24,000 bases of DNA from positions 6,384 to 30,383 of the forward strand of contig CAJQNS010000074.1 in NCBI GenBank assembly GCA_905479735.1, written 5' to 3'. The DNA is from an uncultured Desulfofustis sp. (GTDB taxonomy: Bacteria > Desulfobacterota > Desulfobulbia > Desulfobulbales > Desulfocapsaceae). The position numbers were made by a program, and so were the translations under genes. The notes beneath the pieces are model-generated. The model did not search any database. It was given only the letters and a program-made list of their open reading frames with translations, and was not told the origin of the DNA. Each line of letters starts with the position of its first letter. Within the stretch, counting starts at the first letter, position 1. Shown here in pieces: positions 16,878 to 17,159 of this stretch.

Positions 16878-17159
16878 TTAACAGCAGCCCTTGGATTTGA
16901 TCCCTATCTTGTTCAGCCACCGGCTGACCACAAGCGAGGCTCAGCCGACACCGGGGTTCACGCTCACCGCCCCCACCGGGCAATTGACGCCGCAGGCGCC
17001 GCATTCCATACAGCCGTCATGATCCTGAATGGCTGCTTTGCCACCTTGGTGGGAAAAGACTGCCTGAGGACATACCCGGGAACACATTTTACAGCCGATA
17101 CAAAGGCTCTGGTCCAGGCAGAGGCTTGATACACCGTGTATATATCTGAATTCTTTCAT
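16878..17159 (-). CDS. hgcB: HgcB, 2[4Fe-4S] ferredoxin partner of the mercury methyltransferase HgcA. It has an in-frame TGA at codon 73 (16941-16943), a candidate selenocysteine. The ORF track stops there (72 aa); the readthrough product is 93 aa
   Basis: MKEFRYI...CIGCKMCSRVCP...CMECGACGVNCP...NPGVG-[TGA]-ASLVVSRWLNKIGIKSKGCC-TAA-TAG. GAGGA ribosome-binding site. The gene starts 14 nt downstream of the hgcA stop. The two ferredoxin motifs, the GVG[C]A position and the terminal CC match the HgcB family as I recall it. The 16878-16940 extension depends on UGA recoding. Confidence 0.7.
16908..16934 (-). other. SECIS-like stem-loop downstream of the hgcB UGA
   Basis: The mRNA folds as CUUGU-(GG bulge)-UCAGCC-[GGU]-GGCUGA-ACAAG, giving 5 + 6 bp. 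The structure starts 7 nt after the UGA. The apical GGU starts at the 20th nt after the UGA. This resembles in layout the E. coli fdhF SECIS (apical GGUC, 5'-side bulge). Confidence 0.45.

Follow-up and report, generated by a model that had tools for sequence, protein, structure and literature searches.

A probable selenocysteine codon at the Cys73 position of HgcB in a mercury-methylation operon of Desulfobulbia

Comparative analysis of the hgcB gene located in the window (the whole stretch of 24,000 nucleotides analyzed here) makes it very likely that this gene encodes a 93-residue dicluster ferredoxin with selenocysteine (Sec) at residue 73. The original prediction took an in-frame UGA of this gene for a Sec codon accompanied by a SECIS-like hairpin. 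This reading is supported by the placement of the UGA in the Cys73 column of the protein alignment, the alternation of this codon with cysteine codons among relatives, the conservation of the tail encoded downstream and the specificity of the hairpin to the TGA forms of the gene. All the positions originally given for the TGA, the 20-codon tail, the TAA, the TAG and the hairpin are right to the base on the minus strand. The features of hgcB are the following:

16878..17159, minus strand: full-length hgcB, 93 codons (M1 ... G72, U73, A74 ... C92 C93) followed by TAA
16941..16943, minus strand: UGA, proposed Sec codon 73 (GVG-U motif), aligned with the Cys73 column
16881..16940, minus strand: post-UGA coding tail ASLVVSRWLNKIGIKSKGCC, 20 codons, with the Cys-Cys end
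16875..16880, minus strand: tandem true stops TAA (16880..16878) and TAG (16877..16875), read directly from the sequence
16908..16934, minus strand: SECIS-like hairpin CUUGU(GG)UCAGCC-GGU-GGCUGAACAAG, 27 nt, with GGU at +23 to +25 (U of UGA = 1)

The hgcA-hgcB gene pair

The pair of ORFs in the window is the mercury-methylation pair hgcA-hgcB, as identified by the curated NCBIfam HMMs. As listed, hgcB is a 72-codon ORF (17159..16941, minus strand) with a product of 72 aa that ends with ...AVSVNPGVG and is followed by TGA at 16943..16941; its start at 17159 lies 14 nt downstream of the hgcA ORF (344 codons, 18208..17174, minus strand). When Cys is put in place of the TGA, the 93-residue read-through product matches the NCBIfam HgcB profile NF040864 with 107 bits (cutoff 99) over positions 1-93 of 93, whereas the 72-aa truncation yields 91.1 bits, which is under the cutoff, and covers model positions 1-68 only. 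The HgcA protein matches NF040863 with 414-415 bits (cutoff 275); relatives share its N-terminal extension. Public annotation cuts the cluster mates of the window HgcB (NCBI MGI9571420.1 and MGI9538229.1) to 72 aa and names them '4Fe-4S binding protein'.

The window HgcB contains two CxxCxxCxxxCP [4Fe-4S] motifs (C20-IGC-KMC-SRVCP and C50-MEC-GAC-GVNCP), with all these columns invariant in the alignment; the Cys73 column is occupied by the UGA, and the CC terminus appears only after read-through. A Cys-type point of comparison is the HgcB of strain ND132 (Pseudodesulfovibrio mercurii, also labelled D. desulfuricans), in which C73A abolishes methylation in vivo and C94A/C95A loses 95% of the activity; in the published structural model, the flexible CC tail is proposed to exchange Hg(II) or CH3Hg+ with Cys73 in both directions. 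The importance of Cys73, Cys94 and Cys95 for methylation, stated along with the original prediction, is confirmed by the papers. The ND132 protein shares with the window HgcB the two CxxCxxCxxxCP motifs, a lone conserved residue 73, the helical extension and the CC terminus, but it is 95 aa long and its residue 73 is Cys.

Alternation of TGA with cysteine codons among hgcB relatives

A homologue search with the conceptual 93-aa product as the query yielded two kinds of proteins, namely many proteins of 92 to 97 aa with the motif ...PGVGCAS... and a CC end, and a set of proteins of exactly 72 aa, all ending with ...SVNPGVG. In the protein alignment, the truncation point coincides with the conserved cysteine of GVG-C, and at every residue the tail encoded in the window has a counterpart in the nearest full-length Cys-type proteins, e.g., ASLIVSRWLRRVGIRTKGCC. 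The proposal that the TGA is codon 73 of a 93-aa product ending with CC accordingly agrees with the full-length homologues both in the Cys73 column and in the CC tail.

Altogether, the DNA of 95 hgcB loci was compared (80 from reference genomes and 15 for the 72-aa proteins). The codon in the Cys73 column is TGC in 38 of these loci, TGT in 24 and TGA in 27, and TAA or TAG in none; the remaining 6 are without the motif that was used for locating this column. Among orthologues, a comparison suggested along with the original prediction, TGA alternates with TGC and TGT and never with TAA or TAG. Every TGA is followed by an open frame that has a Cys-rich end wherever the contig reaches it, and this end is CC in all loci except L021 (...CCIG; labels of this form denote individual related loci). 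The frame, the CC end and the TGA are all retained in each of the approximately 10 diverged relatives whose contig covers the end of the gene.

The TGA forms comprise two clades, one of which includes the window (MAGs of Desulfobulbia/Desulfocapsaceae) and the other Desulfobacula, Desulfotignum and Desulfobacter. In the neighbour-joining tree of the 72-residue core, both TGA clades are purely Sec, with Cys forms between them. Within the window clade, the gene order beta-CASP nuclease - hgcA - hgcB - surE - ilvY - ilvC is conserved.

Selection on the tail and the genetic code

Across nine distinct sequences of the window clade, the 20 codons that follow the UGA show pS of 0.46 and pN of 0.06 (pN/pS 0.13), compared to pN/pS of 0.20 for the 72-codon body of hgcB in the same set; between the window and L088, the tail differs at 10 synonymous positions and at no non-synonymous one. 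With 20 codons thus kept as protein in the face of many synonymous changes, as the original prediction had anticipated for a coding tail, the post-UGA part of hgcB is, by all indications from these substitution patterns, translated and under purifying selection. A reassigned genetic code was considered and rejected: TGA is the ordinary stop of hgcA (17176..17174) and of several other long ORFs in the window, and therefore the recoding is site-specific.

The hairpin downstream of the UGA

The hairpin spans 7 to 33 nt downstream of the UGA, and its GGU begins at the 20th nt past this codon. The folding energy of the 27-nt hairpin is -11.4 kcal/mol (z -2.95; 1 of 200 shuffles is as stable). In single-sequence folding, the wider 76-nt stretch is no better than its own shuffles (z -0.79), so that the weight comes from the comparison of relatives and not from the energy of one sequence. 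The upper stem and the loop are identical across ten relatives, synonymous sites included. The hairpin codons for V-S-R-W-L are represented by one codon each in these 10 sequences, compared with 2 to 6 where S, L, R or V is encoded elsewhere in hgcB; given that serine, arginine and leucine are six-fold degenerate, the use of single codons points to an RNA-level constraint. The lower stem of L084 is altered on both sides (CUUGU/ACAAG to UCUGGU/GCCAGG) with a 6-bp helix retained.

The Desulfobacula-type clade possesses a hairpin, UUAUCCA-GGUC-UGGAUAA, in nearly the same place (GGU at +21 to +23), which is unrelated in sequence to the window hairpin UCAGCC-GGU-GGCUGA. Under a control criterion that was applied to all forms (a hairpin of at least 4 bp with GGU in the loop, starting at +19 to +26), a GGU-loop hairpin is present in 21 of the 21 distinct TGA forms vs 2 of the 62 Cys forms, a contrast that overstates independence, since the 21 TGA sequences represent only two evolutionary origins, and that we accordingly treat as supporting evidence rather than as a probability. 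The mean folding energy is -12.7 kcal/mol for the TGA forms and -8.5 kcal/mol for the Cys forms. RNAalifold produced no consensus structure for 16 pooled Sec-form sequences, because the hairpins of the two clades lie 2 nt out of register and have no sequence similarity; hence the comparison was made per clade. A permissive Rfam scan of positions 16400..18600 gave no match and no SECIS family, and no curated bacterial SECIS model exists for scoring.

The SECIS of E. coli fdhF, the 46-mer of which is present in the fdhF gene of 5419 of 5426 complete E. coli genomes in our sequence search, has GGUC at +22 to +25 and GGU at +22 to +24 (U of UGA = 1). The likeness to this element claimed in the original prediction holds up, with GGU starting at +22 in fdhF and at +23 in the window, i.e., within 1 nt, and with a 5'-side bulge under the upper stem common to both. 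Both elements are stem-loops that follow the UGA directly on its 3' side, within coding sequence, and carry an apical GGU. The window hairpin differs from that of fdhF in its 3-nt loop (GGU closed by C-G, in place of GGUC) and in its unrelated stem sequence.

A separate observation concerns eight Cys-type hgcB genes (L011, L014, L015, L033, L043, L052, L053 and L065) that encode ...IIQTWIK... and contain a hairpin of 5 to 7 bp, AUUCA-GACC-UGGAU, at +14 to +30 after the Cys73 codon. This is the place of the Desulfobacula-type SECIS, and a Thr-to-Val change (ACC to GUC) would yield a GGUC loop. The codons of this peptide may thus be a pre-adapted site for the recruitment of Sec.

Relationship to the known Sec-containing HgcB

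The existence of Sec-HgcB is not a new concept. Haft and Gwadz described 17 of 266 HgcB proteins (6.4%) as selenoproteins with Sec at residue 73 (bioRxiv 10.1101/2022.07.06.499078; J Bacteriol 2023, 205:e00259-22), so that the original prediction, which was not aware of a described Sec-HgcB, had missed a proposal published in 2022-2023. The GVGU motif is given for HgcB (NF040864) in a 2026 review (PMC13188914), and a 2024 PNAS paper on purified HgcAB states that homologues 'may be selenoproteins'. None of the papers found in this analysis reports a biochemical demonstration of Sec in an HgcB protein, the published idea being purely bioinformatic.

The proteins described by Haft and Gwadz and the window HgcB have in common the GVGU motif with Sec as residue 73, where the ninth invariant Cys is otherwise found, the CC tail and the pairing with hgcA. 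In their supplementary alignment, Sec-HgcB proteins are of the Desulfobacula type, GVGU-A[AST]YIIQVWIK, or of the Firmicute type, GVGUAYAILKGL, whereas the window type is NPGVGU-ASLVVSRWLNKIG. Strings typical of the window tail were not found in that supplementary HgcB alignment, an uncertain negative given that its text was machine-read. The window HgcB probably represents a third lineage of Sec-HgcB.

Proposed mechanism and the Sec machinery

Under the proposed mechanism, the UGA at 16943..16941 would be recoded by the bacterial SelB/tRNA-Sec pathway, and the recoding would be directed by the downstream hairpin, the GGU loop of which lies at the distance characteristic of the fdhF SECIS. Translation would then go on through the helical extension to the C-terminal Cys-Cys pair. 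By extension from the published work on Cys73, a selenolate would replace the thiolate through which Hg(II) or CH3Hg+ passes between the HgcA corrinoid and the flexible CC tail.

No selA, selB or selD was detected by NCBIfam annotation of the 24-kb window (19 largest non-overlapping ORFs including hgcA and hgcB) or in the fetched flanks of the related loci, and a tRNA-Sec search of the window and 13 related loci found none. A match of one gene to a LysR 'selenium metabolism-associated' family is far under the cutoff and was discarded as a Sec-related candidate; this gene is ilvY. A scan of the window for other selenoprotein genes, i.e., for in-frame TGA with coding sequence on both sides, gave only hgcA. 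Indirect evidence for the decoding of Sec by the host is provided by hgcA, which shares the operon with hgcB and has a second conserved TGA followed by a hairpin. Desulfobacterota rank among the most prolific users of Sec.

Alternative explanations of the in-frame UGA

Several alternatives to Sec insertion have to be weighed. One is a nonsense mutation that leaves a 72-aa HgcB, either non-functional or working without Cys73 and the CC tail. The gene callers and NCBI do present a 72-aa '4Fe-4S binding protein', and the 76-nt region folds like its own shuffles; however, purifying selection is stronger on the tail than on the body, which rules out a dead truncated gene, and the approximately 10 diverged relatives with a contig that reaches the end of the gene have all preserved the open frame, the TGA and the CC terminus. 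Moreover, given that C73A kills methylation in ND132, truncation would leave an inactive protein, which is at odds with the conservation of the gene and of its synteny. Taken together, these observations render a nonsense mutation highly unlikely. The TGA could also be thought of as an assembly or sequencing artefact affecting a TGC or TGT cysteine codon, from either of which it is one base away, and a related MAG (L001) does have a probable indel error nearby, in hgcA. Such an origin is extremely improbable, given that the exact 72-aa sequence is found on 70 public contigs from four sources and that the TGA is also present in independent assemblies at 99-99.7%, 97%, 93% and lower DNA identity, which excludes a sequencing error.

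Read-through of the UGA that does not involve Sec, either by near-cognate insertion of Trp or Cys or by another form of programmed read-through stimulated by the hairpin, would produce a full-length HgcB devoid of selenium. The sequence data bear on the translation of the tail only and not on the residue that is inserted, and neither the window nor the flanking sequences of the related loci contain Sec genes, both of which are compatible with this alternative. It does not account for the fact that the codon stands for Cys, in the classic pattern of Sec/Cys alternation, or for a GGU loop of the fdhF type located as far from the UGA as in fdhF; furthermore, the same pattern is observed in other HgcB lineages, in species reported to have the Sec machinery. 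To our knowledge, no mechanism of efficient UGA read-through without Sec is established in bacteria. We therefore regard non-Sec read-through as unlikely and favor Sec at residue 73 of HgcB.

A possible distal Sec site in HgcA

The hgcA gene of the operon contains an in-frame TGA of its own, in the N-terminal extension. The relevant features are the following:

17174..18370, minus strand: hgcA, corrinoid/membrane protein core plus N-terminal extension from ATG 18370..18368, with stop TGA 17176..17174
18329..18331, minus strand: TGA within the reading frame of the hgcA extension (M-ESIPRHENRPTG-U-DSDC...), probably the operon's second Sec codon
18296..18320, minus strand: small hairpin UUCCACCG-GUU-CGGUUGAA after the hgcA TGA, GGU at +22 to +24, -6.0 kcal/mol, z -1.4, weak alone
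18260..18265, minus strand: HgcA Cys-Cys motif VCCGGPPPP at the published PCUGP site, 14 residues before RPGY, like the CU motif of ND132

This TGA, located 13 codons past the ATG at 18370 and 22 codons (~22 residues) upstream of the Cys-Cys motif, is probably read through as Sec, with evidence weaker than that for hgcB. The M-x12-TGA arrangement is kept in nine distinct sequences, namely the window and eight relatives with an intact frame (L081, L084, L086, L088, L091, L099, L100 and L101), down to 55% HgcA identity. There is no canonical start codon between the TGA and the CC motif in the window, L086 and L091, and in the window, the first canonical start past the TGA is the TTG at 18208, beyond the CC motif; in L081, L084 and L088, possible internal start codons are present. 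Across 14 loci, a GGU at +22 to +25 is located in the loop of a hairpin after the hgcA TGA or, in three weaker single-sequence folds, at the loop edge. These loci include all nine sequences with the M-x12-TGA arrangement and three independent lineages (L027, L064 and L043) that show the layout 'distal CU plus proximal CC'. The peptide that flanks the hgcA TGA is loosely constrained (pN/pS 0.5 to 0.7).

Haft and Gwadz place the Sec of HgcA in a CUGP motif (PCUGP in most rows), ~15 residues before (K/R)PGY, and their HgcA alignment contains only this proximal CUGP Sec site or Cys-Cys in its stead (bioRxiv 10.1101/2022.07.06.499078). A proximal site of the PCUGP type is visible in many of the fetched loci. 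The PCUGP-type HgcA and the window HgcA are alike in that both have an extension that needs read-through of one UGA and a Cys-rich motif ~14 residues before (R/K)PGY. In the window HgcA, however, this motif is VCCGGP, and the UGA lies ~22 residues upstream, in the context PTG-U-DSDC (PPC-U in L084 and L088), so that the PCUGP pentapeptide of the published type is lacking. From these comparisons, the distal TGA of hgcA looks like a Sec site outside the published description.

In one relative at 59% HgcA identity (L100, metagenome contig Ga0164313_10010694), hgcA with the distal TGA is paired with a Cys-type hgcB (GTGC-AALIIGRWLNKVGINAKGCC), which means that the two Sec sites of the operon were not acquired together. 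The combination of a distal-Sec HgcA with a Cys-type HgcB in this locus suggests a stepwise recruitment of selenium into Hg-handling residues. On balance, we lean slightly toward the view that this lineage has a doubly selenium-dependent HgcAB, in which Sec73 of HgcB, the product of a switch separate from those in the two other Sec-HgcB types, is combined with a previously undescribed distal M-x12-U in HgcA. In the MAG CAVWXN01 (L001, ~8785-9000), which is 93% identical to the window at the DNA level, the hgcA extension is out of frame when compared with the window and every other relative, probably due to an indel error in the assembly.

Neighboring elements

The intergenic region between hgcB and surE contains a unit of ~240 bp duplicated in tandem (16488-16619 and 16721-16861). 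The repeat includes 107-nt copies with 96% identity, each located after a palindrome GGGGACA(C/T)AATA...TATTGTGTCCCC, and has no Rfam match; it could be a terminator-bearing or a REP/MITE-like element. On the other side of the operon, a gene for a beta-CASP/metallo-beta-lactamase nuclease (18485-19936, plus strand) is divergent from hgcA, an arrangement that is retained throughout the clade. The assignment of this nuclease as 'type VII CRISPR Cas14' was rejected, given that this best NCBIfam match yields 382 bits with a cutoff of 800; the protein is a beta-CASP RNase homologue instead.

Implications

The 72-aa gene call scores under the NF040864 cutoff (91 vs 99 bits) and receives a generic name, and consequently surveys of hgcAB that are based on annotation or require hgcB next to hgcA are likely to under-count this lineage, which is environmentally widespread, with the exact protein on 70 public contigs. 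Cys73 of HgcB is essential for the production of methylmercury. A selenolate at residue 73 would be a stronger ligand of Hg(II) and CH3Hg+ than a thiolate, which bears on the transfer of the metal to and from the corrinoid, an idea that is already in the literature and for which this lineage would provide another natural Sec-HgcB variant.
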